DNA from: a virus
IMG/VR virus record: IMGVR_UViG_3300029561_000002
Location: 1-64,000 of that record
DNA: 64,000 bases
Reading direction: 5' to 3' (one strand)
Below are positions 1 to 57,551 of this stretch, piece after piece. The notes under the pieces were generated by a model. It had not been told where the DNA came from. It was given only the letters and a program-made list of their open reading frames with translations, and ran no database searches. The position numbers and the translations under genes were made by a program. Positions within the stretch are counted from its first letter, which is position 1; each line of letters begins with the position of its first letter.

Positions 1-126
1 CGCCTATGGAGAGTACAAGAACTTGTGAGTAGATAGATATTTATATCATCAAAAGCATACTCGTTGAAGTAGGAATGAAACATAGAAGTTTATAACTTTT
101 TATAAGTTTTCAGTAACGGTGTTTTT

Positions 127-1665
127 ATGGCTGATAATACCATTGATACCCTTGATATACAAATAAACAGTAGTACCAGGAACGCTACAAAAGCATTGGG
201 AAATCTGGCTAAAAAGTTAAAGGATGTTGACACAGCACTGGGGAACGTCAATACTGGTGGGCTTAGAAACTACGCTCGTGAAATTGGAAGAGTATCAGCA
301 GCCTTACAGACATTAAACAAAACAAAAGTTAGTGTGCCGGACTTATCTGGATTAACCGGTCAGCTTCGGAGCTTGTCAAAAGTTGACTTTACGACGCTTG
401 GAGCGAGTACGAAATCTTTGCAGAATCTGGCTGCTGGATTAAGTTCTTTAAAAGGTGCTTCTAATGTTTCAATTCCAAAGATTGATACAAAAAACGTCAA
501 GTCAGCAGTAAACGCTATTCAAAAATTTCAAGAAATTGATGCTGTGAAGATGCAGCCCGCAATAACCGGTGTTGGAAAAATTTCTAGCACCATGAACGCT
601 CTTAACGGAATGAACTTCAAGGATTCTAAAATCACGAATGTTATCAATTCCTTAAGCAGACTTGCGATGGCAGATATGAGCGGATTTGACACTTCAAAGA
701 TGGGAGAAATCATCAAAAGCATCGACAGCTTAAATGATATTGAGGATGTATCTTCCAGTGTCAACCGGTTTGTAGGTTCACTGGCGAGACTTGCTAATGC
801 TGGAGGAAAAGTAGACCAGTCAGCAGAAGGCTTAAAAAAACTCGGAAAGAGTTTGAGAAAAGTTGTTAATGGTATGCTGTTTACAATAAAGCCCTCAGAA
901 TCCATAAACATGTTTGTGCAATCCATTTCACGGTTAGCGAATGCAGGTGACAAAACCGGTAAAACTGCATCGCAATTAGGAAATCTAGCCACAGAAGTAA
1001 AGAAGTTCTTTGCCGCCATGCAGAACGCTCCACAGATCAGTGAGAATACGCTGAGAATGACTGAAGCCCTCGGGCAGTTGGCGACGGCCGGTGGAAAAGT
1101 AGGAACTGCTACGAACACTGTGGTCAATTCCTTTAACAAGCTTTCCTCTATCGGTTCAGGGCTTTCTTCGTTACTTGGTGGAGTAGCAACAAAAGCAAAG
1201 AGCGGACTGGGATTTCTGGCAGCCGGAATCTCTAGTCTGGTCAATAGGAGTAGTGGACTGAAAACAGCATCTTTCAATGTGGGTTCTTTCATTAAGACCG
1301 TCCTTGGATTCAAAGCGGCTTCAGCTGTAATGAACAAATTCAGCGAAGCCATGGGTGGAAAAGGAATCCTTGAGATTGGTTCTGATATCGCTGAGGTCGA
1401 GAACGTTGTAGATGTTGCTTTTGGAAGCATGGCAGATCAGGCATACAAGTTTGCATCTACGGCGACAAAACAGTTTGGATTATCGGAACTGGCAGCAAAG
1501 AACTACTCCGGAACCATGATGGCGATGCTGAATGCTTCTGGCGTGGCGCAGGAATCCGCTGCGAAGATGTCAACAACTCTTGCGGGATTAGCCGGAGATT
1601 TGGCATCTTTTTACAACATTGATACTGATACCGCCTTCTACAAAATCAGGGCGGGTATTTCGGGT
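127..1665 (+). CDS. Tail tape measure protein, exon 1 of 3
   Basis: ORF 127..1701 has helical repeats (SRLANAGGK, SRLANAGDK, GQLATAGGK). The conserved core ..DTAFYKIRAGISG ends at 1665; the frame then reads RYFAPCSRKAA and stops. Confidence 0.75.
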
Positions 1666-1988
1666 AGATATTTTGCCCCTTGCAGTCGAAAGGCTGCATA
1701 GAAAATCGAGCAAAATCGGGGAAAGCTAAATTGATTATCAACATGCTAATCCCGAGGTAAGCGGTCAGATTACTAACGGCTGACTGCCACCGTAACGCGT
1801 AGGAGCTGAATAAATATAATGCTCCCAAGAGTGTTCGACACGATTGATAAAGTCAATCCACTATTAAATATAGCGCCTAACGTTATACGAGGGTGAAAAG
1901 GTACGCTGAACCGGGGATGAATCAACATCCCATAATGCGAGGAAACTCCCGGAAGTATCGGATAAAAAGCCGGTACGGTAACAAATTG
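1666..1988 (+). ncRNA. Group I-like intron 1 in tape measure gene (no ORF)
   Basis: 323 nt insert with stops in all frames. It follows exon T1665 and ends in G1988. GCCC at 1675-1678 can pair with exon GGGT, giving a U.G at the splice site. It shares sequence blocks with the second insert. Confidence 0.6.
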
Positions 1989-2174
1989 GAAATTGAGCCT
2001 TTAAAACAGCTCGGAATAAATCTTTCGATCGCCAACTTACAAGAATATGCACTGTCACAAGGCATTACAACAGCCTATAATTCCATGACACAGGCACAAA
2101 AAACAATGCTGCGCTATAACTACATCATGTCAGTTACAAGTGCGCAGCAGGGAGACTTCGCCAGAACAGCCGGT
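1989..2174 (+). CDS. Tail tape measure protein, exon 2 of 3
   Basis: EIEPLKQLGINLS...QQGDFARTAG continues the tape measure core. It lies in a different frame from exon 1. After 2174 the frame reads RLCAA and stops. Confidence 0.7.
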
Positions 2175-2487
2175 AGACTATGTGCCGCCTGATGTAGTAA
2201 TACATCAGTGAAAATCGGGTAAAGTCGGTAAAGGTTAAGTTGACTTAATACGAACATATTATATTTACAGGATAAGTCAATAAGTTAATACCGAGATAAG
2301 GCTATAGAGCAAAAGCTATAGCACATTGTAGAGCGTAGGGATTGAACCTAGGCTCTTTTTTATTAAAGAGTTTAGAATATAATATCCCCAAGAGTATCCG
2401 ACATCCTTATGGGATGAAAATGTACGCCGAACTTATAGGAAACTATAAGAACTATAGGATAAAAAGCCTATAGGATAACATTAATTG
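2175..2487 (+). ncRNA. Group I-like intron 2 in tape measure gene (no ORF)
   Basis: 313 nt insert. It follows exon T2174 and ends in G2487. GCCG at 2184-2187 pairs with exon CGGT, at the same +9 offset as in intron 1. It shares GAAAATCG, CCCAAGAGT, GGATAAAAAGCC and the AATTG 3' end with intron 1. Confidence 0.6.
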
Positions 2488-5400
2488 ACATATGCAAACC
2501 AAGTACGTCTCCTTACTATGAACATCCAGTCCCTTGCATCTGTTATCGGACAGGGCTTAATCGCAGCAGTTCTTCCGGGAATCCAAGCTCTTAATGCCTT
2601 GATGTCAAAACTTATGCAGGCTGCGGAAACATTCCGCAACTTTATGTACGTTCTGATGGGCAAAAAAATCAAGGGATCCACAAGCGGGGTCGTAAACGAT
2701 CTTGCCGGACTGGAAGATTCCTCAGCAGACCTTAGCGGATTACAGGATGCCGGAGATGCAGCAGCTTCTGGGCTGGACGATGCTACTTCGTCAGCAAAAG
2801 CTCTGAAAAAAGCTCTTTCTGTTCTTCCGTTTGACGAACTGAATCAGCTCACAGATAATTCTAGTTCATCTGGTTCAACATCTGGTACCGGAAAGGGTAA
2901 AACTGGAACCGGTACAACGCCTTCATTGGGTCTTGGCGGAATCACAAACCAGATAGACGATGCTCTGAACAAAGAAGAAACCCCTATCAATAAATGGGCC
3001 GAAAAAATTCGCAAAGCTTTTCTCAACCATGACTGGGAAGGACTTGGAAAGACTATTGCAGATATGCTTAATATCGGAATCCGGAAGATTTACGATGTTA
3101 TTAGTTGGAGCAATGTAGGTCCGAAAATCTCTGCATTTTGTAATGCTTTTACTCGATCTTTTAACAGTCTTGTTGAAAATATTCACTGGGATAGATTAGG
3201 GCGTACTGTCGGTGCCGGTATCAACACTTTGGTCAACACCTTTGAGCTTCTGATTGGCCCGGGTGGCATTGACTTCGTAAACATTGGTAACAAACTGGCA
3301 ACTGGGCTTCGTGGAATGATTGACGAAGTTAACTGGCCAAACCTTGGTCAAGTCCTTGGCAGTGGTTTTATGATAAGCTGGAATATTCTGGACGGTTTTG
3401 TTCAGAAAATGTCTAAAGAGAATAATGCCGGTCTGACTGGTTGGGAACAGTTAGGAACTGCAGTTGCCGATGCCATGAATGGAGCTTTTGGCAGAATTTC
3501 ATTCTCCAAAATAGCAACTACGATTGCGACCGGATTAAACGGTGCATTTAGGACATTGGCTGCATGGACGCAAAAATTCAACTGGGACGAACTGGTAAAC
3601 AATATTTCCAACGGAATCAATACTTTTATTGGAAAGTTTAAGTGGCAAGAGAACGGAACATCCTTAAACACTTTCATCACAAACTTACTGGACGCTCTGG
3701 TTGATATTGCAGCAACAACAGACTGGGAGTCATTCGGAAGAGGTATCGGACTATTCCTTAGCCAGATAGACTGGGGAAGTCATCTAAAGGATTTAGCCAC
3801 AGTATTAGGGGACGTTTTGGGCGGAATCTTTTCCGGCTTAGGAGAAACTACAGCTGGTAAGTTTGTAGTTGCATTTGCCGGTGTAGGATTGGTGTCAAAA
3901 GCCGATACCTTGGTGTCATCTATTTTAGTTGCTATGGGAAAACTGCCGACTGGAGCCAGTGCTACGGCAACATTACTGGGAACAGCACTCAGCAAAATAG
4001 CGACTGCATTTTCAACAAGTACATTAGGCACAGCTGTTGGGGTTTACGCTCTGGAAGCTGTTGACAAGTTGAAAGCGATCCCGACTACCATAGCAACACA
4101 GATTGCGCCAAAAATCCTTGAAGTTATAACTACCAAACTTTGGCCGGCTGCAACTGCCTTCGCTGGTTCAATTGGAACTTGGATTACAGGAACTTTTGCA
4201 CCAGCTATGGCAACAGCGTTTTCTACATTGGGCAGCGTACTATTCAGCCCGATAGGTTTAGCTGTTATCGGAGCTGTTGTCGGTGGATTTCTGCTGTGGC
4301 AAAATTGGGATACCGTTACGGAATTTGCCGGTAAAGCTAAGGAAGCAATAGAAAATGCGTTCAGCACTGCCGGAACCTGGCTTTACGCACATGGATCAAA
4401 CCTTATCAATGGACTTTACAACGGTGCCAAAAACGTGATTTCCACTGTTGGAACATGGCTTAAAACAAACATCTCGGACCCTATTATCAACGGTATTAAA
4501 AACCTTTTTGGTATTCATTCTCCGTCTACGGTTTTTGCTGAGATTGGCGGGTATTTGATATCTGGACTGAAACAGGGAATCTCTGACAGGATTGGAAGCG
4601 TGATTGATACGTTCACAAACATTAAGAACACTGTAACCGGCGTGTGGGACGCTATTAGTTCAAATACCAAAACAGCATGGGATTCAATTGGTTCGAAAAT
4701 TAAAGGAGCTTGGGATACCATTACTGGACAAACTGAAATCGATTCTGCATCCGCAGCTACAAGTGCTGAAAAATCCTTCAGCCGTGTAAGCACATCTGCG
4801 ACAAAGAACTGGGGCAACTCTTCCCGTGAAGTAACCAAAAATGTCCGCCAGATGAAGGTTGATGCAAGTACGGAACTCGGCAGAATGGACGAAACCGTCC
4901 GCAGCCACTTTGGAAGCCAGTACAGAATCGCTCTTGGCAAATGGCAGAATCTTGGAAGGGATATTTCTTCTTACATCCGGGGAACCATGAACTCAAGCAT
5001 TGGCGGTGCGATCAACGGTATAGTTAATACAATCAGTCGAAATTTCGGAGATATGTACAGTATCGGGCAAACGGCTATGCAGAATCTCCGAAACGGCATG
5101 GAGTCAATCAACATCAGGACTCCACATATTTCTATGGATTATACTGATTGGCAAGAGGGACAGACCCACAAGTGGCGGTACAATTCGAGAGTTGACTGGT
5201 ACGCCAAAGGCGGTCTTTTCAATGCTGCATCCGTGATTGGTGTCGGTGAAGCTGGAAAGGAAGCGGTCCTTCCATTGACCAACAAGCAGGCCATGAAGAG
5301 CATTGCTGACAGCATTACCGGAAACATGCCGGACGGAAGTATCGGGCTAGGTAAGGAAGAAATGACACAGGCGGTAACACAGGGTGTCGCTATGGCAATG

Positions 5401-5541
5401 ATGAACATGAACACCGGTGGGAACTCATCTCCACAGTACATTTCCAACACGATCAATCTGGACGGACGTGCTATTGCGAAAGCGGTCACAAAAGCCCAGA
5501 ACGACAATAACCGGCGGAAAAACCCTAGCCCAGCGTGGTAA
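2488..5541 (+). CDS. Tail tape measure protein, exon 3 of 3
   Basis: TYANQVRLLTMNIQSL.. continues the conserved core. About 1017 codons with Gly/Ala-rich hydrophobic stretches. The spliced product would be about 1592 aa. Confidence 0.8.
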   Translation, partial: TYANQVRLLTMNIQSLASVIGQGLIAAVLPGIQALNALMSKLMQAAETFRNFMYVLMGKKIKGSTSGVVNDLAGLEDSSADLSGLQDAGDAAASGLDDATSSAKALKKALSVLPFDELNQLTDNSSSSGSTSGTGKGKTGTGTTPSLGLGGITNQIDDALNKEETPINKWAEKIRKAFLNHDWEGLGKTIADMLNIGIRKIYDVISWSNVGPKISAFCNAFTRSFNSLVENIHWDRLGRTVGAGINTLVNTFELLIGPGGIDFVNIGNKLATGLRGMIDEVNWPNLGQVLGSGFMISWNILDGFVQKMSKENNAGLTGWEQLGTAVADAMNGAFGRISFSKIATTIATGLNGAFRTLAAWTQKFNWDELVNNISNGINTFIGKFKWQENGTSLNTFITNLLDALVDIAATTDWESFGRGIGLFLSQIDWGSHLKDLATVLGDVLGGIFSGLGETTAGKFVVAFAGVGLVSKADTLVSSILVAMGKLPTGASATATLLGTALSKIATAFSTSTLGTAVGVYALEAVDKLKAIPTTIATQIAPKILEVITTKLWPAATAFAGSIGTWITGTFAPAMATAFSTLGSVLFSPIGLAVIGAVVGGFLLWQNWDTVTEFAGKAKEAIENAFSTAGTWLYAHGSNLINGLYNGAKNVISTVGTWLKTNISDPIINGIKNLFGIHSPSTVFAEIGGYLISGLKQGISDRIGSVIDTFTNIKNTVTGVWDAISSNTKTAWDSIGSKIKGAWDTITGQTEIDSASAATSAEKSFSRVSTSATKNWGNSSREVTKNVRQMKVDASTELGRMDETVRSHFGSQYRIALGKWQNLGRDISSYIRGTMNSSIGGAINGIVNTISRNFGDMYSIGQTAMQNLRNGMESINIRTPHISMDYTDWQEGQTHKWRYNSRVDWYAKGGLFNAASVIGVGEAGKEAVLPLTNKQAMKSIADSITGNMPDGSIGLGKEEMTQAVTQGVAMAMMNMNTGGNSSPQYISNTINLDGRAIAKAVTKAQNDNNRRKNPSPAW

Positions 5542-5729
5542 AAACCATTGCCATTTCTGCCGAATTGCGGTATAATAAATGAGTAACAAGTAACACCTAT
5601 ATCTTGTTATATTGTGCGAAAAAACAAAATATTGAGCAGACTTAAGATGATATTTATTTGGGTTGAAACAGTGACCCGTTTTCCGTGATACCGTCTTGGA
5701 GTCTGCTCTTTTTTGTTTTACAGAAGGGG

Positions 5730-5948
5730 ATGAAGCAAATGAAGCCATATGGATTAGTTGACAGAAATATTATACTCAACAAAAATCTATCGTTGGAAGC
5801 AAAAGGAATATACGGCATATTGATGAGTCTTGATGGAACAGACTTTGAACTGGATGAAATCTGCGAATGTGTTTCAGAGGGCAAAGAAGTTGTCGGAAAA
5901 GCTTTAAACGAATTGGTAAATCATGGATTTATTTCATTCGAAAAATAA
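5730..5948 (+). CDS. Small winged-helix-like protein (start 5730 or 5739)
   Basis: ORF track entry. GAAGGGG RBS lies upstream. The C-terminus GKALNELVNHGFISFEK resembles a wHTH recognition helix. Confidence 0.4.
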   Translation: MKQMKPYGLVDRNIILNKNLSLEAKGIYGILMSLDGTDFELDEICECVSEGKEVVGKALNELVNHGFISFEK

Positions 5949-6063
5949 TACGGTAAAACCAACAGGCTAGACCGATCATCGAAAAGCGGAAATGCCTTGC
6001 CGCCTGCCTGTTGATTTACATACATTTCAAGGCATCTTATATACGAAAGGCAGGTATTTTTCT

Positions 6064-6534
6064 ATGAAGTTTAAGGAACAATCCAAAAGTCTTAATATTC
6101 CAGTGGCAAGAGAACCTATTATATATTTTTTGCTGAATGGCGATGAAGTAGTTTATGTTGGACAGTCAATAACGGGACTTTGCCGACCTTATAGTCATTC
6201 CGATAAACAGTTTGACAATGTTTCAATTATTAGGTGTAAAAAAGAAGAATTGGATGATTTAGAAATATTTTACATTAGGAGATATATGCCAAAATACAAC
6301 AAAAGATGTATTGACGGTTCAAAAGATTTTTCTTTTTTAAAGGTTAAGGAAATCATCAGGAAAAATACTAATTTTGAACAATGCACGATTTTTGACATCA
6401 AAAGAATGATGAAAGTTATTGGGATTAAGGCATATGCGGTAAGAGATATGTTTTATATTTCAGCCGATGATACTGAAAAGCTTGTAGAATATACTAATAA
6501 TCATTTTGATGGATACAAGCTGGTGATAAATTAA
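6064..6534 (+). CDS. GIY-YIG-like nuclease domain protein (putative)
   Basis: IYFLLNGDEVVYVGQS ... FYIRRYMPKYN resembles the GIY/YIG/R/E/N pattern. Internal ATG of ORF 5992..6534. Confidence 0.45.
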   Translation: MKFKEQSKSLNIPVAREPIIYFLLNGDEVVYVGQSITGLCRPYSHSDKQFDNVSIIRCKKEELDDLEIFYIRRYMPKYNKRCIDGSKDFSFLKVKEIIRKNTNFEQCTIFDIKRMMKVIGIKAYAVRDMFYISADDTEKLVEYTNNHFDGYKLVIN

Positions 6535-6664
6535 TTGGTAAATTCAGTAGGCTAGGGTAGCTCCCGAAAAGTGTAAACCTTGATGCACCTGCCTACTGTT
6601 TTTATAAATCAAGGATTCTGGCATATTATGGAGATGCCAATGACCAACAAGGAGGTTATTTATT

Positions 6665-7642
6665 ATGGACAAAGAGTTTAATTATCCAAGAGATTTTAAA
6701 GGAGTATGGATCCCGAAACAGGTTTTTCTTGATGAAAGATTAAATGCGATTGAAAAATTGATTCTGGCAGAAGTCGACAGTCTTGATGTAGAAGGAAGCG
6801 AAGGATGCTTTGCGAGCAATGAATATTTAGCAAAATTCTGCCAATGTAGTGTGACAAAAGTTTCTACTTCTGTCTCCAAGTTAATAAAACTTGGATATCT
6901 TTATGTGCTTAAAAATGACGGAAGAAAAAGGTACTTAAAGAGTAGACTTTCAAATTTTGAAAGTCAGGAATTTAAAAACAGTAATTCAGACACGTCAAAT
7001 ATGAAACAAAGTAATAATAATTATAAATACAGTGTAGATGATATAGATAAAGACTTTATTTTATCAAATAAAGAGAAAAAGACTTTATCAAAGAATGATA
7101 AAGGTTCAAAGACTTCTGCTCCTAATAATATTAATATATTAAATATAAATAATATACCTTCACGGACAACTGAGCAGAAGGAAGTGCGCCGTAAGCAAAA
7201 ACAGAAAAATCGTTCTGAGAAATACCGGGACGAAGATGTACCGCAGATTCTGTACAATAAGTTTAATTCCCTGTATGGTGAACAGGAGAATATTCTGGAA
7301 GATCATGACATCTGTCTGACCATGGCAGTTATCGCTTATTACTTCAAACAGTACCGGGCGCACATGGGCGAACAGCATATAATGATTTCTGCCGAATACG
7401 TAGATCAGTTCATGGGAGTTATCATTGGCGATGATTCACCACTTCTGAAAGCGGACGTGGAAGAAAAAGATGAACTTCGGTTCTATCAGGACATGATAGA
7501 TGAGTTTTTTAAATCAGACCTTGGTCAGCGAAATGGAAAAGAGTTTGACCGTCATATCTGGTTGTTCTTCTCAGAGAGAAATCAAGACATTTTGTGTGAA
7601 CGGGTAAAGCAGAAATGGGATAACCAAGAATACATTGACTAA
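6665..7642 (+). CDS. wHTH (DnaD/replication-initiator-like N-terminus) protein with Asn/Lys-rich linker
   Basis: N-terminus VWIPKQVFLDERLNAIEKLILAEV...YLAKFCQCSVTKVSTSVSKLIKLGYL. Low-complexity middle region. Confidence 0.45.
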   Translation: MDKEFNYPRDFKGVWIPKQVFLDERLNAIEKLILAEVDSLDVEGSEGCFASNEYLAKFCQCSVTKVSTSVSKLIKLGYLYVLKNDGRKRYLKSRLSNFESQEFKNSNSDTSNMKQSNNNYKYSVDDIDKDFILSNKEKKTLSKNDKGSKTSAPNNINILNINNIPSRTTEQKEVRRKQKQKNRSEKYRDEDVPQILYNKFNSLYGEQENILEDHDICLTMAVIAYYFKQYRAHMGEQHIMISAEYVDQFMGVIIGDDSPLLKADVEEKDELRFYQDMIDEFFKSDLGQRNGKEFDRHIWLFFSERNQDILCERVKQKWDNQEYID

Positions 7643-8394: not shown

Positions 8395-9027
8395 ATGAAG
8401 AAAATCAAAATTATGTTACTTGCAATCTTATGTCTATGTCTTATCGGCGGGACTACAGGATGTGCTCGGATGGACGATGCTATTAATGACATCAAAGGCG
8501 ATCTGGTTGGAAATGGATATACAATCCATACTTACGATAACTATGGCTCAAAAGTGATGACCACTAATGGCGATAAAATCAATGTTCAAGGGAATCCGAT
8601 TGAGACAACTTCTTACAACAGTGATGGAACTGTGGTCAGCGGATACGAGCTGTCATCCGTGATCACAATCAATATTGACGGCAAGGAAATCCAGAGCTGC
8701 GGCGACACCTGCATATTTGAGCAAGATGGTCTGGAGCCGGATGTGGATTTTGAGCAGACTGATATTTACAGTCAATCTACAGGAAAACTTTCTGACAATA
8801 CTTACGTTGCCGGGATCGTAAATCAGTACAAGAATTATTTCGGAAAATCCAGAGTTGTTGTGATTAAATCTCAGCTTGGGCAACCTATTACAGCATATTC
8901 TGGTGACGAAGTATACTGGAAAATTCCGAAGAAGTTGCCGAAAATGACAAAACTCATGATTGACGGGAAAGCCCTTTACATCCACCGGGCAAACTTTCAG
9001 ATTATTGACACAGCATTGTTGAAATAA
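8395..9027 (+). CDS. Putative lipoprotein
   Basis: N-terminus MKKIKIMLLAILCLCLIGGTTGC is a signal peptide with a lipobox-like Cys. Confidence 0.6.
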   Translation: MKKIKIMLLAILCLCLIGGTTGCARMDDAINDIKGDLVGNGYTIHTYDNYGSKVMTTNGDKINVQGNPIETTSYNSDGTVVSGYELSSVITINIDGKEIQSCGDTCIFEQDGLEPDVDFEQTDIYSQSTGKLSDNTYVAGIVNQYKNYFGKSRVVVIKSQLGQPITAYSGDEVYWKIPKKLPKMTKLMIDGKALYIHRANFQIIDTALLK

Positions 9028-9191
9028 AACGGCTTAAATACGGGCACAATTTTTTTGAACGATAAAAACTCCACGGAAACACAAAAAATGGATTCTAGGC
9101 GAAAATGCTCGATCAATTATTGTGATTCTCATTGTAGTTTTTTGCACTTGGATGTATAATTGAGTTATCAATCCAAGGGAGGAAGAAGAAA

Positions 9192-10079
9192 ATGAAAAGG
9201 TGGAAAAAGCTTACAGTGATTTTGCTGGCAATGATTATGGCGCTTGCCATGGCGGTTCCGGCATCGGCGGCAACAGTTAAAATTAACAAAACGAAGGCAA
9301 CCATTTGCACAGGGCAGACATTGCAACTGAAGATGGTCGGAACGAAAGCAAAACCAAAATGGTCTAGCAACTCGAGAAATGTAATTGTGAATAGCGCTGG
9401 AAAAGTAACAGCAAAGGCCCGAGGAACAGCTACGATTATTGCTAAAATCGGGAAGAAGAGATATCGGTGTTTGGTGACAGTAGAAGCGCCGAGGATAAGC
9501 AACTCAAATATTTCACTGTACAAAGGAAAAACGGCACAGCTTAAAATGCTGAATACGAAGCAGAAATACAGATGGACTTCTTCAAATACCAAAGTTGCAA
9601 CAGTTTCGTCAACCGGTAAGATTAGCGGAAAAAGTGCCGGGACTGCTTATGTTTCCGCCAGAAGTGCGTCTGGTAAAACATTTAAGTGCAAAGTCACAGT
9701 CAAGAACACACCTAGCAAACTTAAGATGCTTTTACCAAATCAAAAAGAGTGTGGAGATGCAGATTTCTTTATTGAATATAATTCTCAAAGAAGTACGAAT
9801 GGTAAAACCGTACTTATGCAGTTATATAAACAATTTCCAATGGGATATATCAATTTTTCAGCAAATAATGTTGACCGGGGATTAATGACATATATCTATA
9901 TTGACGGAACACTCTGGGATCAAAATCATGGTACTTCTGTTAGTGGTGGTGGGTCATTGGACGACATTTATATAAAGCCTGGAACACATGTTGTTGAAAT
10001 GGTGCAATTTGCGAATAATAATCGTTATGGGAAAGTGAAATCGTATCGCAGAGCAATGTACAAAGTGACTTATAAATAA
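9192..10079 (+). CDS. Secreted protein with two Big_2-like Ig repeats
   Basis: Sec signal ..AMAVPASAAT. Two repeats match the bacterial Ig-like group 2 pattern (GQTLQLK...WSSSN..VATV...G.V.A...GTA.I). Strong RBS. Confidence 0.65.
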   Translation: MKRWKKLTVILLAMIMALAMAVPASAATVKINKTKATICTGQTLQLKMVGTKAKPKWSSNSRNVIVNSAGKVTAKARGTATIIAKIGKKRYRCLVTVEAPRISNSNISLYKGKTAQLKMLNTKQKYRWTSSNTKVATVSSTGKISGKSAGTAYVSARSASGKTFKCKVTVKNTPSKLKMLLPNQKECGDADFFIEYNSQRSTNGKTVLMQLYKQFPMGYINFSANNVDRGLMTYIYIDGTLWDQNHGTSVSGGGSLDDIYIKPGTHVVEMVQFANNNRYGKVKSYRRAMYKVTYK

Positions 10080-10184
10080 GACCATGGACCGGGGAGAAAT
10101 CTCCGGTTCTTTCTTTTTACTCGAACATCATATGTAAAAATATGGAATCATATTACGTCAAAAAAGTATAATGAATAATCATAA

Positions 10185-10212
10185 AGCGTCTATCTTTGAT
10201 AGGCGCTTTTTT
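10185..10212 (+). terminator. Rho-independent terminator after the Big_2 gene
   Basis: 10-bp stem AGCGTCTATC/GATAGGCGCT (one G.U) followed by TTTTTT. A second hairpin plus T-run lies at about 10088-10120. Confidence 0.6.
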
Positions 10213-10239
10213 CATGCGCAAAAATGAGGTGATTATTCA

Positions 10240-10605
10240 ATGGCAGACGTTTTTATAAAAATTAATGGTGCAGCGATGCCTTGTCCGTCCTCTTTTACCT
10301 GGGGACTTCAGGATATATCAGCGTCAGAATCCGGAAGAACAGACGATACGATCATGCATAAGAATCGTGTTGGACAAAAGAGGAAACTGGAAATCGGCTG
10401 GAATGCGCCAGAATGGGAAAAAGCTTGCAAAATCGTACAAGCGGTCAATCCGGAGTACATTTCTGTTGAATATCCTGATCTCTTGTCTGGAAACAAACAC
10501 GAAGTCCGAACCTTTTATGTTGGCGACCGGTCCGCTCCTTTTAAGTGTTGGTGGATTGGGAATCAACGAATGGAAGGATTGCAATTTGACCTGATCGAAC
10601 AGTAG
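10240..10605 (+). CDS. Putative tail component (distal-tail position)
   Basis: First gene after the island and immediately upstream of the tail fibre gene. The call rests on position only. Confidence 0.4.
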   Translation: MADVFIKINGAAMPCPSSFTWGLQDISASESGRTDDTIMHKNRVGQKRKLEIGWNAPEWEKACKIVQAVNPEYISVEYPDLLSGNKHEVRTFYVGDRSAPFKCWWIGNQRMEGLQFDLIEQ

Positions 10606-10616
10606 GAGGTGAGAGA

Positions 10617-13600
10617 TTGAGAGATATTTCAAACAGATTCAAGAATGAACAGGATAACGATAACAGGAATTATTTAAAATACGCAGACATAACGCTGACG
10701 GATGGAACAATTATCAATCTTACCAACGCTGATTTTTGGTCAAACGGTATGAAGTTTGAGGATTCCGTGTCTGACGACAACGTTTTCAAGATCGGGTCCG
10801 CAAATATCAACACATTGAATCTGTCAATCAATAACTTTGACGGAAAGTATACAGATTATGATTTTACAGATGCTACGGTGATCTGCTATGTAGGAATTGA
10901 ACTTGAGCCAGAAGATACCAGTGCATTGCTCGATACCACCGGCGATAAGATTCTGGATACGACCGGTAATGAAATCATAGTACATAAGAATGCTTTGATA
11001 GAAAAAATCCGAATATGCACAATGACGGTCATAGATACTCCGTACCAGAATACTACGATCATCGAACTACAATGTGAAGATAACATGCGGAAGTTCGACC
11101 GTGATTATTCAGCAAGTAAGCTGAAGTATCCAGCAACAAGGAAACAAATAATACAGGATGCTTGCAAAGTGTGCGGAGTAACACTGGACACGCTTAATTT
11201 CTATCAAGATTCTTATCAGATACCAGCAAGGCCCGATGATGAGGCGCTGACCTTCAGACAAGTTATAGCATGGGTATGTCAGATCGGATGCCAGTACGCC
11301 AGATGCGATAAATACGGCAGATTGACTATAAAATGGTATGATACGGAAATTGCTGATGCGGACAGAGTAGTTATAAAATCCACTAATGGTTTTACCCCGA
11401 ACCTGGACGATGTAGTGATAACTGGTGTGCAGGTAACAGAGTATCTGGAATCTACGTCTAAAGATGAAGAAGCAAGTTCGTATCTGTACGGAGAAGAAGG
11501 ATATGTTCTGAAAATCAGTGAAAACAAACTGATTCCGCAAGGAACCGGAGAGGTTGTTGCAAGTATAATCGGTGAAAAATGCGTCGGGATGTCTTTCCGG
11601 CCGTTTGAAACGGAATGTTTGACCGATATAGTTCTCGAAGCCGGTGATGCTGTTTTGATCACCGACCGAAAAGGGAAAAAGTATAAAAGCTTTTTGACAA
11701 ATGTCGTGCTGCAACCAGGGTCGTTTGAGCAGATTTCCTGTAATGCTGAAAGTGCAGCCCGGAATAGCTCAAAGACCTATTCACTTGTAACACAAGCAGC
11801 TGTCGACGCAAGGAAATCCGTTTGGAGAGAGCGAACCACCCGAGAGCAAGCATTGCAAGAGTTTAAAGACCGGCTGGACAATTCCACCGGTGTTTATACC
11901 ACGGTCCAGACTCAGCAGGACGGTAGCCAAATTTTTTATTTGCATGATAAACCCACACTTGCAGAATCGCAGGCTGTATGGAAGATGACCGCAGAAGCAT
12001 GGGGCGTTTCGACAGATGGTGGTCAAACATGGAACGGCGGAATGACCGTTGATGGAGATACGATAGTAAGGATTTTGAACGCTGTTGGTGTTAATGCTGA
12101 CTGGATTAACGCCGGAGCAATCACGGTAACAGATGCCGACGGAAACATCATCTTCTCTGTGGATATGGACACGAAATCCGTATATCTCGACGGAAGTGTT
12201 CAAATTGGTGGAGGAAAATCTCTTAACCAAACATTTGCAAACTATCTCCAAGAAAGCAAGGATTATTCAGACGGAAAACTATCTGACTACGCTGAAACGG
12301 TAACTGGCTCACTGGGAGAATTGCAAGACCAGATAGACGGTCAGATTGAAACATTCTATTACGATTATGAACCTACACTTCAGAACAAACCTGCATCAGA
12401 CTGGACTACTAAAGAAGAAAGACAAAAGCATGAAGGAGACTTGTTCTTTTGGAAACCGAATAAAGAAACTGGCGAAGGCGGATATGCTTATCGGTTCTTT
12501 TATGATTCGACCGTAGGTAAATGGGAATGGGTTCTTGTACAGGACACAGATATCACAAAAGCTCTTGCGGCGGCTCAAAATGCACAGGATACCGCAGATC
12601 ATAAGCGCAGAGTGTTCGTGACAAAACCGCAGCCACCTTACGATATCGGTGATTTATGGTCGCAGAGTGAAGATGAAGGTGGAGATATCCTTACCTGTAC
12701 AGTTTCAAGAGCAAAGGGAGCATCTTATGTTCAGTCGGATTGGCAGAAGCTGAATAAATATACCGATGATACAAAAGCAGAAGAGGCCCTTGAGGCTGCA
12801 TCCCTAGCCAGAAACATGACCATGCAGCTTGATAACGACTATCAAGGCATCCCGGTTGACAGCGACGGTAACTATACAGAGTTCCCGGAGTGCACCACAA
12901 CAGCGACCGTTATGTACGGTACACAGGACATCACGAATAACTGTACGTATACGATTACGACATCCCAGAATATACAGGGAAGTTGGGACAAGGAAAACAA
13001 AACCTATACTGTCACCGGGCTGACCGCAGACAGCGGATGGGTGAACATCAAAGCCGCATATCTGAATAACCTTGTCGTATCGAAACAGTTCTCACTTGCG
13101 AAACAGTACGCCGGACCACAGGGAATCCCGGGTGTCGGACAGGATGGCAAGACGACCTACCTGCATATTAGATATGCTCCTGTTCAGAACCCAACGGCGG
13201 CACAGATGAGTAAGACACCAAACAAGTACATCGGAACTTATACGGACTTTTCCGGCGTTGACAGTACCGACCCGACAAAGTACACATGGGCCAAGTTTGA
13301 AGGCGACCAAGGAGTGCAAGGCCCGAAAGGGGCGGACGGAAAGACACCGTACTTCCATATCGCTTACGCCAACAGTGCGGATGGAAAAACCGGCTTCTCT
13401 GTGGATGATAGCGTCAATAAGCTGTATATCGGGCAGTACACCGATTACACGCCGAATAACAGCACTGACCCGACAAAATACAGTTGGACGAAAATCAAAG
13501 GCGAGCAGGGAAATGCCGGAAGGACTTACTTCTTCCAGAGTAATGCAGATGTGTTACTGATGGGGGCAGATAAGAAGATAACACCGGCGCCGCTCATTGT

Positions 13601-14873
13601 GGATTCGTTCTACAGGGATGGAAACGGCGAAGTTGCACAGTCACAAAAAGGTTGGTGGAAACTTGAAAAATCCACCGACAACGGCGCTACATGGTCAGCG
13701 CTCACGGTATCACAGACTGCGGCACTTGACCGTTTGAGTGTTAATGTCAACGGACTGTCACTCAAGGCACATGACATGCTCAAGGTTTCACTGTATTTTG
13801 ACCAGTCGAAAACGAAACTTGCGGACTACCAGACATATTCCGTTGCGGTCGATGTGGCGTCACTGACACAGGAACAGATAGTTGATATCCTATCAGACGG
13901 CGGAAAGTTCAAGGGTCTGTATTATGGCAAGGATGAGAGTGGAAACGCGACGCTGTATATTTCGTTCAATGCCGCAAAAGGTGGAACACTTGCACTCGGC
14001 GGACAGAATGACGGAAACGGCTTGGTGAAAATATACGATAGCAGTGGAAGTTTGATTTTAACCATTGGGCAAAATGGAATAGAAACCAGAGCAACGACGC
14101 TGACCAATAAAAATGCAAATGGTAAAATTGCATTTAACAAGAAAGGCTTGACATTTGTTCAGGATATAGCGGGCGGTGGTACAAGTTCAGGCAACGACTT
14201 GCATCTTGAAAAAAGCATAATTTCATTTGATTCACTTGCTAACGTCATAGGTGAGCTCGACAAGCTAACAGTTAGGGGAGATGCAAAAGCAGAAGGCAGA
14301 CTCCTTTTTTACGACTATGAAAATCAAAGCAAAAAAGCGAGTGGAGCGAAAGCGGTAACAAGACAGCCTGTAGCGTCTGTTACTGCCGATACTAACCGAG
14401 TAGCTTTTTTGAGTTCTGACTATCACGCAAATGGATATGGAGCCGGTACCGAACATGGTAGTTACCGCCTTGGCGTAAAAGCGCAGTGGGGCGGCAGCTC
14501 TTATGAAACGCATTATATTTATTCGAACCTGGCTGTTTCCGACATCCGCCTAAAAGAAAACGTTAAAAACAGCGAAACAGACGCCCTCGAAACGGTCAAT
14601 CGCATGAAAGTCCGTCAATTCGATTGGAAAGAGCGGATGGGCGGATGGCATCAGGATATCGGTTTCGTGGCGGATGAACTGGAAGAAATCGACCCGAACT
14701 TGGCACTGGGCGGCGGATATGACGAAAACGGTGAGATGGACATTAAGCAGATTAATAGCCAGTACTTGCTGAACTACGCCATTAAAGCCATACAGGAACT
14801 TAGTGCAAAGGTTGACGAGCAAGAAAAACGTATCAAGGAATTAGAAAGGAGATTACAAAATGGCAAAGTTTAA
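10617..14873 (+). CDS. Tail fibre / minor structural protein with C-terminal intramolecular chaperone (peptidase S74-like)
   Basis: 1418 aa, TTG start after AGGAGG. Two ~65-aa repeats (G.QG..G.DGKT.Y.HI.Y........YIG.YTD....DSTDPTKY.W.K..G.QG). C-terminus SDIRLKENV...MKVRQFDWKE...GFVADELEEIDP plus a coiled coil. Confidence 0.75.
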   Translation: MRDISNRFKNEQDNDNRNYLKYADITLTDGTIINLTNADFWSNGMKFEDSVSDDNVFKIGSANINTLNLSINNFDGKYTDYDFTDATVICYVGIELEPEDTSALLDTTGDKILDTTGNEIIVHKNALIEKIRICTMTVIDTPYQNTTIIELQCEDNMRKFDRDYSASKLKYPATRKQIIQDACKVCGVTLDTLNFYQDSYQIPARPDDEALTFRQVIAWVCQIGCQYARCDKYGRLTIKWYDTEIADADRVVIKSTNGFTPNLDDVVITGVQVTEYLESTSKDEEASSYLYGEEGYVLKISENKLIPQGTGEVVASIIGEKCVGMSFRPFETECLTDIVLEAGDAVLITDRKGKKYKSFLTNVVLQPGSFEQISCNAESAARNSSKTYSLVTQAAVDARKSVWRERTTREQALQEFKDRLDNSTGVYTTVQTQQDGSQIFYLHDKPTLAESQAVWKMTAEAWGVSTDGGQTWNGGMTVDGDTIVRILNAVGVNADWINAGAITVTDADGNIIFSVDMDTKSVYLDGSVQIGGGKSLNQTFANYLQESKDYSDGKLSDYAETVTGSLGELQDQIDGQIETFYYDYEPTLQNKPASDWTTKEERQKHEGDLFFWKPNKETGEGGYAYRFFYDSTVGKWEWVLVQDTDITKALAAAQNAQDTADHKRRVFVTKPQPPYDIGDLWSQSEDEGGDILTCTVSRAKGASYVQSDWQKLNKYTDDTKAEEALEAASLARNMTMQLDNDYQGIPVDSDGNYTEFPECTTTATVMYGTQDITNNCTYTITTSQNIQGSWDKENKTYTVTGLTADSGWVNIKAAYLNNLVVSKQFSLAKQYAGPQGIPGVGQDGKTTYLHIRYAPVQNPTAAQMSKTPNKYIGTYTDFSGVDSTDPTKYTWAKFEGDQGVQGPKGADGKTPYFHIAYANSADGKTGFSVDDSVNKLYIGQYTDYTPNNSTDPTKYSWTKIKGEQGNAGRTYFFQSNADVLLMGADKKITPAPLIVDSFYRDGNGEVAQSQKGWWKLEKSTDNGATWSALTVSQTAALDRLSVNVNGLSLKAHDMLKVSLYFDQSKTKLADYQTYSVAVDVASLTQEQIVDILSDGGKFKGLYYGKDESGNATLYISFNAAKGGTLALGGQNDGNGLVKIYDSSGSLILTIGQNGIETRATTLTNKNANGKIAFNKKGLTFVQDIAGGGTSSGNDLHLEKSIISFDSLANVIGELDKLTVRGDAKAEGRLLFYDYENQSKKASGAKAVTRQPVASVTADTNRVAFLSSDYHANGYGAGTEHGSYRLGVKAQWGGSSYETHYIYSNLAVSDIRLKENVKNSETDALETVNRMKVRQFDWKERMGGWHQDIGFVADELEEIDPNLALGGGYDENGEMDIKQINSQYLLNYAIKAIQELSAKVDEQEKRIKELERRLQNGKV

Positions 14874-15381: not shown

Positions 15382-16797
15382 TTGGAAATTAAAGGAATTG
15401 ACGTATCATCCAATCAAGGAAAACCAGACTGGGCGAAAGTAGCTAAATCTGGTATTAAATTTGCGATTTTGAGAGTGCATCAGAAAGCCGGTATTGACGG
15501 CTCATTCGAGTACAACTACAAAGGTTCTAAGAGCAACGGAATCCTTATCGGCGGGTACAAGTATTCATACGCTCTGACACCGGCACAGGCTATTGACGAA
15601 GCGGAGGATGTGATCGCCGCACTGAACGGACGTGGACTGGACTTTCCAGTATTCTACGACCTTGAGTGGTCTAATCAGCGGAAACTCGGCAAGCAGGCTA
15701 TTGAGAACATTGCAGTTGCATTTCTGGTAAGGATGAAAAAAGCCGGTTATAAGGTCGGTATATACTGCAATCTGGACTGGTACAACAACGTTCTGACTGA
15801 TGCACTCAGAAAGTATGAGTGCTGGATTGCACGTTATCCGGCCAGCGACAATGGTTCCGTACAAGAAAGGTTACGTCCGTCTGTCGGTGTAGGCTGGCAG
15901 TATTCAAGCAAAGGAAAAGTATCCGGCATCAGCGGAAATGTTGATATGGATGTATTCTACAAGGACTATAGAGGAACGACACAGAAAGGAGAAACAACAA
16001 TGGTAAAAATCAGTAACTGTGGACATGACGAAAACGGAAGATATGCAGGTGGAAAAGCAGGAGATCAGACCGGTACAGAGTATCAGATCATGAACTGGTA
16101 CAGCAGACCGTGGCTCTGTGTTCTAAGATTCAATGACGCTAAAATCGCAGCCATGATCGCAGACATGGCGACAAAAGCGGCACGGAACAATCTCATAGGT
16201 TACGATCAGGGTACTGCCGGGAACAGCAATGACCGGTATACGTTCTGGCAGCACCTGAAGGCAAGTAACTACGATCCGGCGCAGATCACGGTAGCTTGCG
16301 AATCTGATTGCAGCGCAAGTACAGCTGCTATCGTCAAGGGCGCTGGATATCGCCTGAATAACGCAAAGCTCAAAGCAGTCAGCATTTATCTGACGACACG
16401 AAACATGAGGGCCGCAATGAAGGCTGCTGGTGCGAAAGTCCTGACGGACAGCAAGTACCTGACATCCGGTGACTATCTGAAGGCGGGAGATATCCTCTTG
16501 AACGATAACCACCACGTAGCTATCGCTGTTACCACCGGTGCAAAAGCAAGTACACCTTCAGCAACACTCACCGGCACCTTCCAGACAAGGCTTCCGATTC
16601 TGAGAAAAGGCAGTTCCGGAACAGCTGTGGCAATGCTTCAGGCGATGCTGGGAGTGGAAGTTGACGGACAGTTCGGGAATGACACATATAATTCCCTCAA
16701 AGTTTTCCAGAAAAATGTTGGTGTAAAGGCAAATGGAACTTGCGGCATTGATACATGGAAGAGAGTGATTGAGCATATGAAAGCCAACACGAAATGA
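15382..16797 (+). CDS. Endolysin: GH25 muramidase + central domain + PG_binding_1
   Basis: N-terminus GIDVSSNQGKPDWAKVAKSGIKFAILRV is GH25-like. C-terminus GSSGTAVAMLQAMLGVEVDGQFGNDTYNSLKVFQ is a peptidoglycan-binding repeat. Confidence 0.85.
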   Translation: MEIKGIDVSSNQGKPDWAKVAKSGIKFAILRVHQKAGIDGSFEYNYKGSKSNGILIGGYKYSYALTPAQAIDEAEDVIAALNGRGLDFPVFYDLEWSNQRKLGKQAIENIAVAFLVRMKKAGYKVGIYCNLDWYNNVLTDALRKYECWIARYPASDNGSVQERLRPSVGVGWQYSSKGKVSGISGNVDMDVFYKDYRGTTQKGETTMVKISNCGHDENGRYAGGKAGDQTGTEYQIMNWYSRPWLCVLRFNDAKIAAMIADMATKAARNNLIGYDQGTAGNSNDRYTFWQHLKASNYDPAQITVACESDCSASTAAIVKGAGYRLNNAKLKAVSIYLTTRNMRAAMKAAGAKVLTDSKYLTSGDYLKAGDILLNDNHHVAIAVTTGAKASTPSATLTGTFQTRLPILRKGSSGTAVAMLQAMLGVEVDGQFGNDTYNSLKVFQKNVGVKANGTCGIDTWKRVIEHMKANTK

Positions 16798-45940: not shown

Positions 45941-46318
45941 TTACTGCTCTAAATAATTTATACATGCGACTTGTGGCAAGCCCCGGAAAAACTCAGAAAA
46001 ACCGCCGTCAGTAATATTATATTGCCGATCAAAAACCGGGATAATCTGCCCGTTTTTAAGCTCCATGCAAGACAGCTGTAAAAATCCGTCTTTTTTCGTC
46101 GACCGGTGCAAGGCGTACCGCATGACGGACGCGTCACCAGATCGCGTTGTTACCGGTGGCAGATCATACCAGATCAGCGGGACAGTACCGGAAGAAACCG
46201 CATTAAACACTTGCGCAGCGTCCTTTTTTGCGGTTGAATTGATCTTGTCAACAACGGAAAAATCACCGCTTTTTATAGCGGTGATGGTTTGCTTTTGCGT
46301 GGCTTTTCTAATTTTCAT
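45941..46318 (-). CDS. Hypothetical protein (last gene of the minus-strand island)
   Basis: AAAGGAG RBS before the internal ATG at 46318. Terminator hairpin at about 45927-45950. Confidence 0.5.
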   Translation of the reverse strand: MKIRKATQKQTITAIKSGDFSVVDKINSTAKKDAAQVFNAVSSGTVPLIWYDLPPVTTRSGDASVMRYALHRSTKKDGFLQLSCMELKNGQIIPVFDRQYNITDGGFSEFFRGLPQVACINYLEQ

Positions 46319-46472
46319 TATAATGTTCTCCTTTTGTTCTCTCCTGGTAAAATGCAATTAATGTTATTTCTATCGGTTCTTTACTGGAAAAGTAACGAAA
46401 ATTTCTAAATTTATTGAAATCATGTTCTAAGTGGTTTTCTTCGATATAGTTTATTATTTGCATTAAGTTCAT
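46308..46472 (-). CDS. Small hypothetical protein (54 aa)
   Basis: Unlisted ORF MNLMQIINYIEENHLEHDF.. that overlaps the next start. Weak RBS. Confidence 0.3.
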   Translation of the reverse strand: MNLMQIINYIEENHLEHDFNKFRNFRYFSSKEPIEITLIAFYQERTKGEHYNEN

Positions 46473-47818: not shown

Positions 47819-47899
47819 AATTTCCCTTTCTGGTCTGCCATCATCAGCACCGGGAGACCGTCCCGCGGTGGACGCCCCTAAAATCTGAGGCGTTTCGGC

Positions 47900-48109
47900 T
47901 TATGCTTCTATTGTTCGCCCGCGGCCGTCCATAAATACCTCCCCGGCGGGCCACTGGCAAAGCTTTGCCCGTCCCTCTTTTACAACACGCTCATTATAGC
48001 GCCCGGCGTGCTGAAGTGCTTTGTATGTGATTGTTTTAGCGGTTTTGTTCGTGATTTCGAATGTTAAACCGCTTTCATAGTATCTTTTTCCGATTTCAAA
48101 TTTTTTCAT
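47900..48109 (-). CDS. Hypothetical protein (69 aa)
   Basis: ORF track. AGGTAAAAGGA RBS region. Confidence 0.5.
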   Translation of the reverse strand: MKKFEIGKRYYESGLTFEITNKTAKTITYKALQHAGRYNERVVKEGRAKLCQWPAGEVFMDGRGRTIEA

Positions 48110-56620: not shown

Positions 56621-56692
56621 AGCGCATTGGCGAAGTGGCAACGCATCGGACTTTGACTCCGCTATTCGTGGGTTCGAATCCCACATGCGCCG
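56621..56692 (+). tRNA. tRNA-Gln (anticodon TTG)
   Basis: Hand-folded cloverleaf. Acceptor AGCGCAT/ATGCGCC (A1.C72 mismatch), anticodon loop CT-TTG-AC, T arm GTGGG-TTCGAAT-CCCAC. Confidence 0.7.
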
Positions 56693-56923
56693 CTCTGCAT
56701 CGGATTTCGCCTTTCCTCTGATGCAGGTTGGATTTTCTTTTTCCCTTTGCCACCTATCACAACGGTGATGATTAAAGGAACTGTCAAATGTTCCGGGTGG
56801 CTTTGCCTTAGTTGGCAAGATTAATTTCTTCTATGGTTTACCTTTGTTGCAGCTGGCGGTCAAGAACTGCAACAGTAGTAAAAAGACAGATATCGCAGCG
56901 ACCCTGTATCTTTTTGCTACTCA

Positions 56924-56997
56924 GGAAACTTAGCTCAGTTGGTTAGAGCAGCCGGCTCATAACCGGTCGGCCCTGGGTTCGAACCCCAGAGTTTCCA
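56924..56997 (+). tRNA. tRNA-Met (anticodon CAT), elongator-like
   Basis: Perfect acceptor GGAAACT/AGTTTCC, D arm TAGCTCAGTTGGTTAGAGCA, anticodon loop CT-CAT-AA, T arm CTGGG-TTCGAAC-CCCAG. Confidence 0.85.
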
Positions 56998-57296
56998 TTT
57001 CTCCCAAAGCTGTCCATCCGTTTTATGGATAGAAAAAACTGCCGAATGTGTGTATGTGGGTTGTTTTTCAGAAGGTACGTAACGGCGTAGCCGGAGTGAA
57101 AAGACAACTTCCCGTTCGGTTCTGTCTCTGAGTTGAATATGTCGCCAATGAGTGCACGCTGACGACAGGGAGTTTTCAAGAGGCATTTCAGAAATAATCC
57201 TCCGAAACAACTCCGTGGGACTGGCACGGATGAAAACAGTCTAGTGGAAAGCATAACACGATAAACCTATTGCTAACCCGGTACAATCCGGGTTAA

Positions 57297-57368: not shown

Positions 57369-57551
57369 TTAATTCGTTCGTTCTATACTGTCAGTGCACA
57401 GGCGGTCTATGGTTCAAGCGGATTAAACCCATGGGAAAAGGTTGATGTTTATCCTGGTAACTGCTGGACAGTACGAAAAACATTATCATATGTTGTGCAA
57501 ATGGAAATCATCTCATTCATTTACCGAGGTGATCAGCCGTGGTAAGCGGCA

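Follow-up and report, generated by a model that had tools for sequence, protein, structure and literature searches.

The stretch of viral DNA analysed here (the window, 64,000 nucleotides (nt) long, positions 1 to 64,000 of IMG/VR record IMGVR_UViG_3300029561_000002) contains, close to its start, a tail tape measure gene broken by two inserts, one of 323 nt (1666-1988) and one of 313 nt (2175-2487), which we describe below as candidate group I introns 1 and 2. In the open reading frame (ORF) listing for positions 1-4200 of the window, the frame running from 127 meets a stop at 1699-1701, eleven codons past the proposed 5' splice site, reopens at 1989, breaks just past 2174, and reopens once more at 2488 to continue to 5541. 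Both inserts have stops throughout all three frames. The lengths of the three remaining exons are all multiples of three, and when joined they give a single ORF of 1592 amino acids with no internal stop, reading ..FYKIRAGISG/EIEPLKQ..FARTAG/TYANQVRLL.. across the two junctions (here and below marked by a slash; the start of exon 2 is also written EIEPLKQLGINLS).

The third exon matches the PHROGs family phrog_1535, 'tail length tape measure protein' (E 1.6e-61), and the protein matches more than 10 further tape measure families of the same database. With tblastn, it also matches annotated tape measure proteins (TMPs) of Roseburia, Streptococcus, Flavonifractor, and Microbacterium phages. Pfam and NCBIfam returned no match to the tape measure core, and the identification rests on PHROGs and the annotated homologues. 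Together with its length and its position in a tail module, with tail protein and endolysin genes downstream, these homologies identify the gene as a tail tape measure gene. The phage is a gut phage of siphovirus type, and the window also encodes a large terminase and a portal protein (Table 1). The nearest prophage-like copies in genomes are found in metagenome-assembled genomes of Eubacteriales and Lachnospiraceae, and the host of the phage probably belongs to the Lachnospiraceae or Eubacteriales.

Relatives of the gene read through both junctions. The spliced 223-residue segment that spans them matched 317 phage records in tblastn searches; of these, 273 align in a single ungapped piece over 80% or more of the query. 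The best match is 77.6% identical over exactly 669 nt and reads GISG-EIEPL and ARTSG-TWANQV uninterrupted. A scan of IMG/VR placed a 153-residue junction segment on 459 contiguous bases in 80 loci, 18 of which are 96-99% identical in protein. The preliminary description of this stretch, made from its letters alone, had proposed such an alignment to uninterrupted homologues as a check on its claim that removing 1666-1988 and 2175-2487 restores the tape measure frame, and the claim proved exact to the base.

The relatives also fix the boundaries of the inserts. Their empty site 1 reads ..ATTTCGGGT/GAAATCGAG.., an allele that is regenerated only by the boundaries T/A...G/G; a shift by one base would yield GGGGGAAAT. 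At site 2, moving both boundaries one base to the right leaves the ligated sequence the same, which makes for a 1-nt ambiguity on the sequence alone, and we chose between the two positions because group I rules place a U before the intron and a G at its end. The empty site 2 is ..ACAGCCGGC/ACATACGCC.., and in the metagenome contigs L224 and L216 it reads ..GCCGGA/TCTTGG... The predicted ligated junctions are TTTCGGGT/GAAATTGAG and CAGCCGGT/ACATATGCA, or, in another written form, ATTTCGGGT/GAAATTGAGCC and ACAGCCGGT/ACATATGCAAAC. With these boundaries, an exon T precedes each insert and a G closes it (G1988 and G2487), as had been noticed before.

Each intron carries a guide that pairs with its own exons. 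At intron positions 10-13, GCCC pairs with exon GGGU in intron 1 and GCCG with exon CGGU in intron 2, forming helix P1 with a U.G pair at the 5' splice site (U1665.G1675 and U2174.G2184, respectively); the P1 of intron 1 extends to 7 base pairs. The preliminary description had already found these 4-nt guides, at an offset of +9, and the U.G pairs. Absent from its list was a 5-base-pair P10 formed directly 5' of the P1 guide (AUUUU/GAAAU in intron 1, UAUGU/ACAUA in intron 2). Seen from the exons, the final base of exon 1 is the U of the P1 U.G pair, the first five bases of exon 2 (GAAAU) form P10 with intron 1 and its last four (CGGU) form P1 with intron 2, and the opening five bases of exon 3 (ACAUA) form P10 with intron 2. 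The whole guide, P1 plus P10, varies between the two introns in step with the exons of each.

Downstream of the guide, the P3-P9 core, whose failure to fold had been named as grounds for rejecting the idea, folds in both inserts. Unconstrained minimum free energy (MFE) folding of the single sequences recovered all the nested helices, with z = -4.2 for intron 1 and z = -4.6 for intron 2 relative to dinucleotide shuffles. P3 differs between the introns by two compensatory changes (UCGAGC/GUUCGA in intron 1, UCGGGU/AUCCGA in intron 2). P7 consists of GCGUA/UACGC plus one pair past a bulged base and crosses P3 to form the classical pseudoknot. All 19 sequences compared have its G-C and C-G pairs without variation, as well as a bulge on the 5' strand that is either C or A, an architecture of the kind expected for a guanosine-binding site. 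A P7.1 hairpin lies between P7 and the 3' strand of P3 in both introns, followed by P8, P9 (with a GAAA loop), P9.1, and a short tail that ends in G. In the classification of Michel and Westhof, subgroup IA is reportedly marked by a P7.1 with a P7.2 or P7.1a between the 5' strand of P7 and the 3' strand of P3; this arrangement is seen in the td intron of phage T4, whose P7.1-type hairpin lies between P7 and P3'. Here, a 5-base-pair P7.1 directly follows P7, four of its five pairs covary, and intron 2 has an inner hairpin, as do many homologues. The two introns share the internal blocks that had been reported: the longest, CCCAAGAGTNTYCGACA, occurs twice in the window, against none expected from 100 shuffles, and GGATAAAAAGCC twice, against 0.56 expected.

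The branched P8 of intron 1 includes a conserved module, CCUAACGUUAUACGAGG, at 1876-1892 (+), which takes the form CCUAACGUUAAACGAGG in loci L106, L109, and L119. We take this module to resemble the 11-nt GAAA-tetraloop receptor, and the GAAA loop of either P9 or P2 could dock there.

Searches with Rfam at its gathering thresholds gave no group I match in the window. A permissive scan of positions 1550-2600 with the group I model RF00028, a check suggested in the preliminary description, pointed to the right place and strand: the matches start at P1 of both introns and score 34.2 bits at 1656-1875 (E 9e-7) and 22.6 bits at 2165-2449 (E 3e-3), below the gathering score of 50. By blastn against GenBank phages, both inserts are partly similar to regions adjoining genes of HNH and other homing endonucleases, and to regions inside terminase, capsid, lysin, and tape measure genes, in Staphylococcus, Clostridium, Bacillus, Streptococcus, and gut phages. 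At least 120 viral contigs matched a 24-nt signature drawn from P9.1 and the tail, and from these we took 25 ORF-less homologues and aligned 17, leaving out the sequences of the window. De novo folding of these 17 homologues with RNAalifold gave P3, P4, P5, P6, P6a, P7.1, P8, and P9.1, with compensatory changes in 35 of 42 pairs. For the 3' domain, P7, P7.1, P8, P9, and P9.1 were imposed on the alignment: 97.6% of the cells are paired, versus 28-43% after sliding of the 3' partner by 1-3 columns, two-sided changes affect 21 of 30 pairs, and none of 500 shuffles reached any observed measure. P7 itself covaries at two positions without exception, GCGUA going with UACGC and GCAUA with UAUGC, and the pair past the bulge is A-U or G-C.

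We then built a covariance model, R1, from the 3' domain only (P7 to the 3' end) and without the sequences of the window; the evidence for P3-P6 is that of the RNAalifold and MFE folds. R1 matches intron 2 with 135.3 bits (E 7.2e-34, 2325-2485) and intron 1 with 106.6 bits (E 2.7e-26, 1789-1988). Both matches are full length, end at the predicted 3' splice sites, and are the only credible ones in the 64 kb; a weak match at 46241-46347 (11.7 bits, E 0.27), in which the helices are broken, is due to chance. At other loci, R1 matches exactly at the insertions in homologous genes and is silent on the intron-less relatives. The group I-like identity first proposed for the inserts is borne out by the covarying P1-P10 fold and by a model made independently of them. 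Judged by these comparisons, both belong to one widespread, subgroup IA-like intron family of phages of Firmicutes, marked by a single P7.1 stem with an optional inner hairpin and by a signature P9.1 loop, AUAAAAAG.

Members of this family also occur close together elsewhere. In the viral contig L044, three of them, two with ORFs, lie in a stretch of about 1.6 kb (416-1974, -) inside a terminase-like gene with the Walker A motif GSVRSGKT in its first exon, and L016 has two in one gene (8852-10334, +).

The public data contain four allele states of the two sites: both empty (L126-L205), site 1 empty and site 2 occupied by an intron with an endonuclease gene (L071), site 1 occupied and site 2 empty (L224 and L216), and both occupied (the window and L215). 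Three metagenome contigs (L215, L224, and L216) have intron 1 at the same site; of these, L215 is 97% identical to the window over the region and has intron 2 as well. These carriers came from a search of metagenome contigs with a shorter pattern that gave 27 matches, the other 24 being unrelated; the exact 23-nt junction between exon 1 and intron 1 had no match in viral contigs. In the contigs, which have diverged by 3-5%, the intron 1 orthologues keep the fold and score 107 bits with R1 in each case. At least three diverged phages thus have intron 1, most relatives lack it, and it shows no trace of an endonuclease.

The history of intron 2 can be read from L071 (IMGVR_UViG_3300007524_000023), in which the tape measure gene is the same (with 92% nucleotide and 98% amino acid identity) and site 2 holds a 1191-nt intron. 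To this intron, intron 2 has 93% identity in its first 91 nt and 99% in its last 218 nt. The intron of L071 encodes an ORF of 291 amino acids (in a frame open for 297 codons) with the Pfam domains GIY-YIG (PF01541) and NUMOD1 (PF07453), which sits in the P5 loop and runs, with its final codons, into the 3' strand of P5. Ahead of the ORF, the loop also contains a promoter-like TTGACT..TATAAT and the ribosome-binding site GAGGTG. Two deletions separate intron 2 from this form: one of 38 nt between CGAACAT repeats, with which the promoter, the ribosome-binding site, and the ATG are gone, and one of about 840 nt that removed the body of the ORF. What is left of the ORF is a piece of its 5' end, CGAACATATTATATTTACAG, that is a 100% match to positions 115-134 of the L071 intron. 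All frames being closed in both inserts, neither encodes a homing endonuclease, as originally stated, and neither has the endonuclease ORF in a peripheral loop that is a trait of mobile introns; intron 2 is nevertheless, by this alignment, a deletion derivative of an intron bearing a GIY-YIG gene, still intact in L071. Since at least 10 more distant tape measure homologues (35-44% identity) carry inserts of about 1.2 kb exactly at site 2, this is a recurrent homing site.

The two introns had been called paralogous. They are of one family, yet they are not duplicates of each other: they have only short core blocks in common (at most 36 bits), whereas their nearest relatives elsewhere are far closer (104 and 385 bits). 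Because of these closer relatives and of their independent occurrence in related phages, we conclude that the introns were acquired separately and not by duplication within the gene.

Table 1. Features of the tape measure gene, its two predicted introns, and other phage genes of the window. Positions are those of the window unless L071 is named; a slash separates the two strands of a helix.
Feature	Position	Strand	Description	Evidence
Tape measure exon 1	127-1665	+	513 codons; ends ..ATT TCG GGT	
Intron 1	1666-1988	+	group I, subgroup IA-like, ORF-less, 323 nt	fold, R1, Rfam, orthologues
Intron 1, P1	1662-1668/1672-1678	+		
Intron 1, P10 guide	1670-1674	+		
Intron 1, P2	1682-1687/1692-1697	+	GAAA loop	
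Intron 1, P3	1706-1711/1833-1838	+		
Intron 1, P4	1716-1720/1751-1755	+		
Intron 1, P5 and P5a	1724-1747	+		
Intron 1, P6 and P6a	1756-1791	+		
Intron 1, P7	1795+1797-1801/1902-1907	+	C1796 bulged	
Intron 1, P7.1	1802-1806/1821-1825	+		
Intron 1, P8	1839-1895	+	branched	
Intron 1, P9	1911-1952	+	GAAA loop	
Intron 1, P9.1	1955-1961/1970-1976	+	loop AUAAAAAG	
Intron 1, terminal G	1988	+		
Tape measure exon 2	1989-2174	+	62 codons; EIEPLKQ...FARTAG	
Intron 2	2175-2487	+	same family as intron 1, ORF-less, 313 nt	fold, R1, Rfam, comparison with L071
Intron 2, P1	2171-2174/2184-2187	+		
Intron 2, P10 guide	2179-2183	+		
Intron 2, P2	2189-2196/2201-2208	+		
Intron 2, P3	2215-2220/2396-2401	+		
Intron 2, P4	2225-2229/2290-2294	+		
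Intron 2, P5	2240-2247/2273-2280	+		
Intron 2, remnant of GIY-YIG ORF 5' end	2251-2270	+	CGAACATATTATATTTACAG (RTYYIYR), 20 nt, in P5 loop	
Intron 2, P6a	2301-2307/2316-2322	+		
Intron 2, P7	2331+2333-2337/2423-2428	+	A2332 bulged	
Intron 2, P7.1	2338-2342/2384-2388	+	inner hairpin 2348-2375	
Intron 2, P8	2402-2406/2412-2416	+		
Intron 2, P9	2432-2438/2443-2449	+	GAAA loop	
Intron 2, P9.1	2452-2458/2467-2473	+		
Intron 2, terminal G	2487	+		
Tape measure exon 3	2488-5541	+	1017 codons and stop	
Tail protein gene	10617-14873			
Endolysin gene	15382-16797			
Large terminase gene	60207-61952			
Portal gene	62482-63975			
Endonuclease-bearing intron at site 2	L071 8530-9720	+		

These data suggest the following scenario. 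The tape measure gene would be transcribed as a single pre-mRNA, in which the guide of each intron would pair with the last bases of the exon upstream (P1, with the U.G pair at the cleavage site). A free guanosine bound in P7 would then attack the 5' splice site, cleaving after U1665 and U2174, and the terminal G of the intron would take its place in the same pocket while P10 aligns the 3' exon. Ligation of the exons in frame would result in one tape measure protein of 1592 amino acids. The two introns entered the gene independently, intron 2 as a mobile intron with a GIY-YIG/NUMOD endonuclease gene in its P5 loop. In the window, this gene has been lost by the two deletions, leaving an intron that is immobile on its own.

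We regard it as very probable that both inserts are spliced group I introns. The boundaries, the empty-site alleles, the covarying fold, the membership in the family, and the history of endonuclease deletion are seen directly in the comparisons above; several points nevertheless weigh against splicing. The reaction, and its independence from proteins, would follow from established group I chemistry, and we linked no member of this sub-family to published work on splicing. In intron 1, P8 is branched and larger than usual and P9 is extended, and intron 2 retains a long AU-rich leftover in L5; these peripheral elements could lower the efficiency of self-splicing or impose a dependence on proteins. 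Both introns also score below the gathering score of RF00028, which is the detection threshold of one broad model and not a property of the molecule.

It is very unlikely, in our view, that the inserts derive from group I introns that no longer splice, which would make the gene a pseudogene of a defective phage or of a prophage in decay. The missing endonuclease in both introns and the deletion scars in intron 2 would fit such decay. Yet all core helices and the pairings at P1 and P10 are intact in both introns, the three exons are open and in frame across 4.8 kb, the orthologues of intron 1 have kept their fold and score in spite of their divergence, and the tail, lysis, terminase, and portal genes of the window are otherwise intact. 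The deletions of intron 2 are limited to the P5 loop, the usual site of an endonuclease ORF, and P5 is still closed.

We give even less credence to a naturally split tape measure encoded by three separate genes, the inserts being ordinary intergenic regions with their own translation starts. ORF callers do report 127-1701, 1893-2192, and 2485-5541 as distinct ORFs, the TTG at 2485 is preceded by an AGGA at a distance of about 10 nt, and GenBank record KX190832 annotates an analogous TMP as three coding sequences (CDS). But in more than 80 close relatives a single uninterrupted frame covers the same residues, and base for base their sequence agrees with the ligated junctions. The supposed intergenic parts form conserved RNA structures; their helices covary and pair with the exons on either side, and these parts come and go independently in genes that are otherwise 92-97% identical. 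The starts of the second and third ORFs fall inside conserved intron helices, and the TTG at 2485, which an ORF caller would pick, is within the tail of intron 2.

The translational hop of T4 gene 60 is 50 nt long, and it is barely conceivable that the inserts are such a hop or another kind of bypassed element: at 313-323 nt they are six times as long as that hop and far too small for a group II intron (for which Rfam shows no match), the stops in all frames exclude an intein, insertion sequences and miniature inverted-repeat transposable elements are contradicted by clean empty sites with neither terminal inverted repeats nor a target-site duplication, and the RNA fold is that of group I.

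Accepting the inserts as spliced group I introns, their arrangement has clear precedents, and the statement in the preliminary description that two introns about 190 nt apart in a structural tail gene are unusual was too strong. Two close ORF-less introns in a tape measure gene are not unusual in kind: TMP genes with one to three group I introns, many of them without an ORF, have been published, including genes with two (PMC2504315, PMC10448857), and genes with two or three close introns exist within the present family. In prophages of the Bacillus cereus group, group I introns occupy three sites of tape measure genes (Tourasse & Kolsto 2008, PMC2504315). Several of these genes have two introns, most of which lack a complete endonuclease gene, and the set (TMP-IVS1, -IVS2, -IVS3a, and -IVS3b) belongs to subgroup IA1 or IA2 (PMC2504315). 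It resembles the introns of the window in the host gene, in the subgroup IA assignment, and in a presence that varies between related phages or prophages. As here, the main differences between related introns at different sites are those in P1 and P10, which fit their own exons (PMC2504315). The hosts are however Bacillus in one case and gut Clostridia in the other, and the TMP families differ. Whereas IVS1 and IVS2 are 80% identical (PMC2504315), the two introns of the window are much more diverged, and the loss of the endonuclease can here be reconstructed base by base from a close relative.

In Vibrio phage ICP1, splicing of TMP introns was demonstrated by RNA sequencing and reverse transcription PCR (RT-PCR), and the gene was described as 'frequently interrupted' (Barth et al. 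2023, PMC10448857). Two introns occupy the TMP locus in one of the isolates, as in the window, although ICP1 infects a Gram-negative host and its introns encode HNH-3 endonucleases (PMC10448857). The mycobacteriophages BAKA and Optimus have an ORF-less group I intron of 265 base pairs in a minor tail gene, confirmed by RT-PCR (Pope et al. 2013, PMC3706429). This tail-gene intron without endonuclease was likewise recognised by means of intron-less relatives, and has a U at the exon end and a G at the intron end; it differs from those of the window in being a single intron in a different gene and a different host phylum.

A parallel in layout is Bacillus phage vB_BtS_BMBtp13 (L003, GenBank KX190832.1 12401-17494), whose TMP was deposited as three 'tape measure' CDS plus an 'HNH nuclease'. 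As in the window, the gene is in three pieces, with two introns about 250 nt apart. The second intron belongs to the same family (R1 123 bits), with the same P1/P10 layout and a GGT/ACA splice site, and was missed by RF00028 at E<0.01; unlike the introns of the window, it still holds an HNH endonuclease ORF. The first intron, in contrast, is of another sub-family, with 97 bits for RF00028 and no R1 match. By tblastn, the tape measure protein of the window showed no similarity to the intron-bearing TMPs of this phage, of Clostridium phage CB452P1, or of Caldibacillus phage CBP1.

Subgroup IA introns of phages include that of T4 td and those of Staphylococcus phage Twort, in which orf142 has three introns in one gene. 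The introns of the window share with these the P7.1-type insertion, ORF-less forms of 250-330 nt, the presence of several per gene, the U.G pair, and the terminal G. They differ from them in having a single P7.1 stem instead of clearly separate P7.1 and P7.2, and in the P9.1 loop AUAAAAAG. Twort also appears as a partial match in Table 3 of the B. cereus-group study (PMC2504315).

The window has several other RNA motifs and elements. The gap ahead of the tape measure gene contains a full-length RAGATH-18 motif (3-75, +, 75.2 bits versus a gathering score of 44.9), about 50 nt before the ATG at 127. Two int-alpA motifs (5960-6032 with 45 bits and 6545-6614 with 57 bits, 78% identical to each other by column) flank an ORF of 180 amino acids at 5992-6534. 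We considered this ORF as a degenerate GIY-YIG nuclease acting in trans and dropped the idea, for which Pfam and PHROGs gave no support. The motifs are accompanied by HTH_36 or replication-initiator-like ORFs at 5685-5948 and 6665-7642 (+), between the tape measure and tail protein genes. Replication-type genes are oddly placed there, and an inserted element may occupy 5685-7642 (+). The minus strand carries a type II hammerhead ribozyme (47829-47900, 58.8 bits, gathering score 37), the long ORFs of the window being essentially all on the plus strand, and four tRNA genes are clustered at 56621-57622 (+).

It seems unlikely, taking three proposals jointly, that the introns are more than inert passengers. 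First, intron 1 might have spread in trans, by means of the free-standing nuclease of a co-infecting phage, or by recombination. Second, the splicing of two introns 186 nt apart could gate the amount or the timing of the full-length tape measure protein; unspliced mRNA would yield a truncated product of 524 amino acids, ending at the stop at 1699-1701. Third, the family with the P9.1 loop AUAAAAAG would, if this were true, be a distinct and very abundant sub-class missed by Rfam's model, and many structural genes of gut phages would now be mis-annotated as fragments.

Group I introns in phage tape measure genes have been on record since 2008, and our finding leaves the knowledge of group I introns and of tape measure proteins unchanged. 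Its practical side is that gene callers and GenBank cut such tape measure genes into two to four CDS labelled 'hypothetical' or fragments. A very common family of phage introns that falls below the Rfam threshold leads to fragmented annotation of structural genes, and a dedicated covariance model would mend that of many genes for structure and packaging in phages of the gut and of Firmicutes. For the introns themselves, the locus offers a natural series of the life cycle of a homing intron, from the empty site to the endonuclease-bearing intron, the intron with its endonuclease deleted, and a second, independent intron adjoining it, all in genes that are 92-99% identical.

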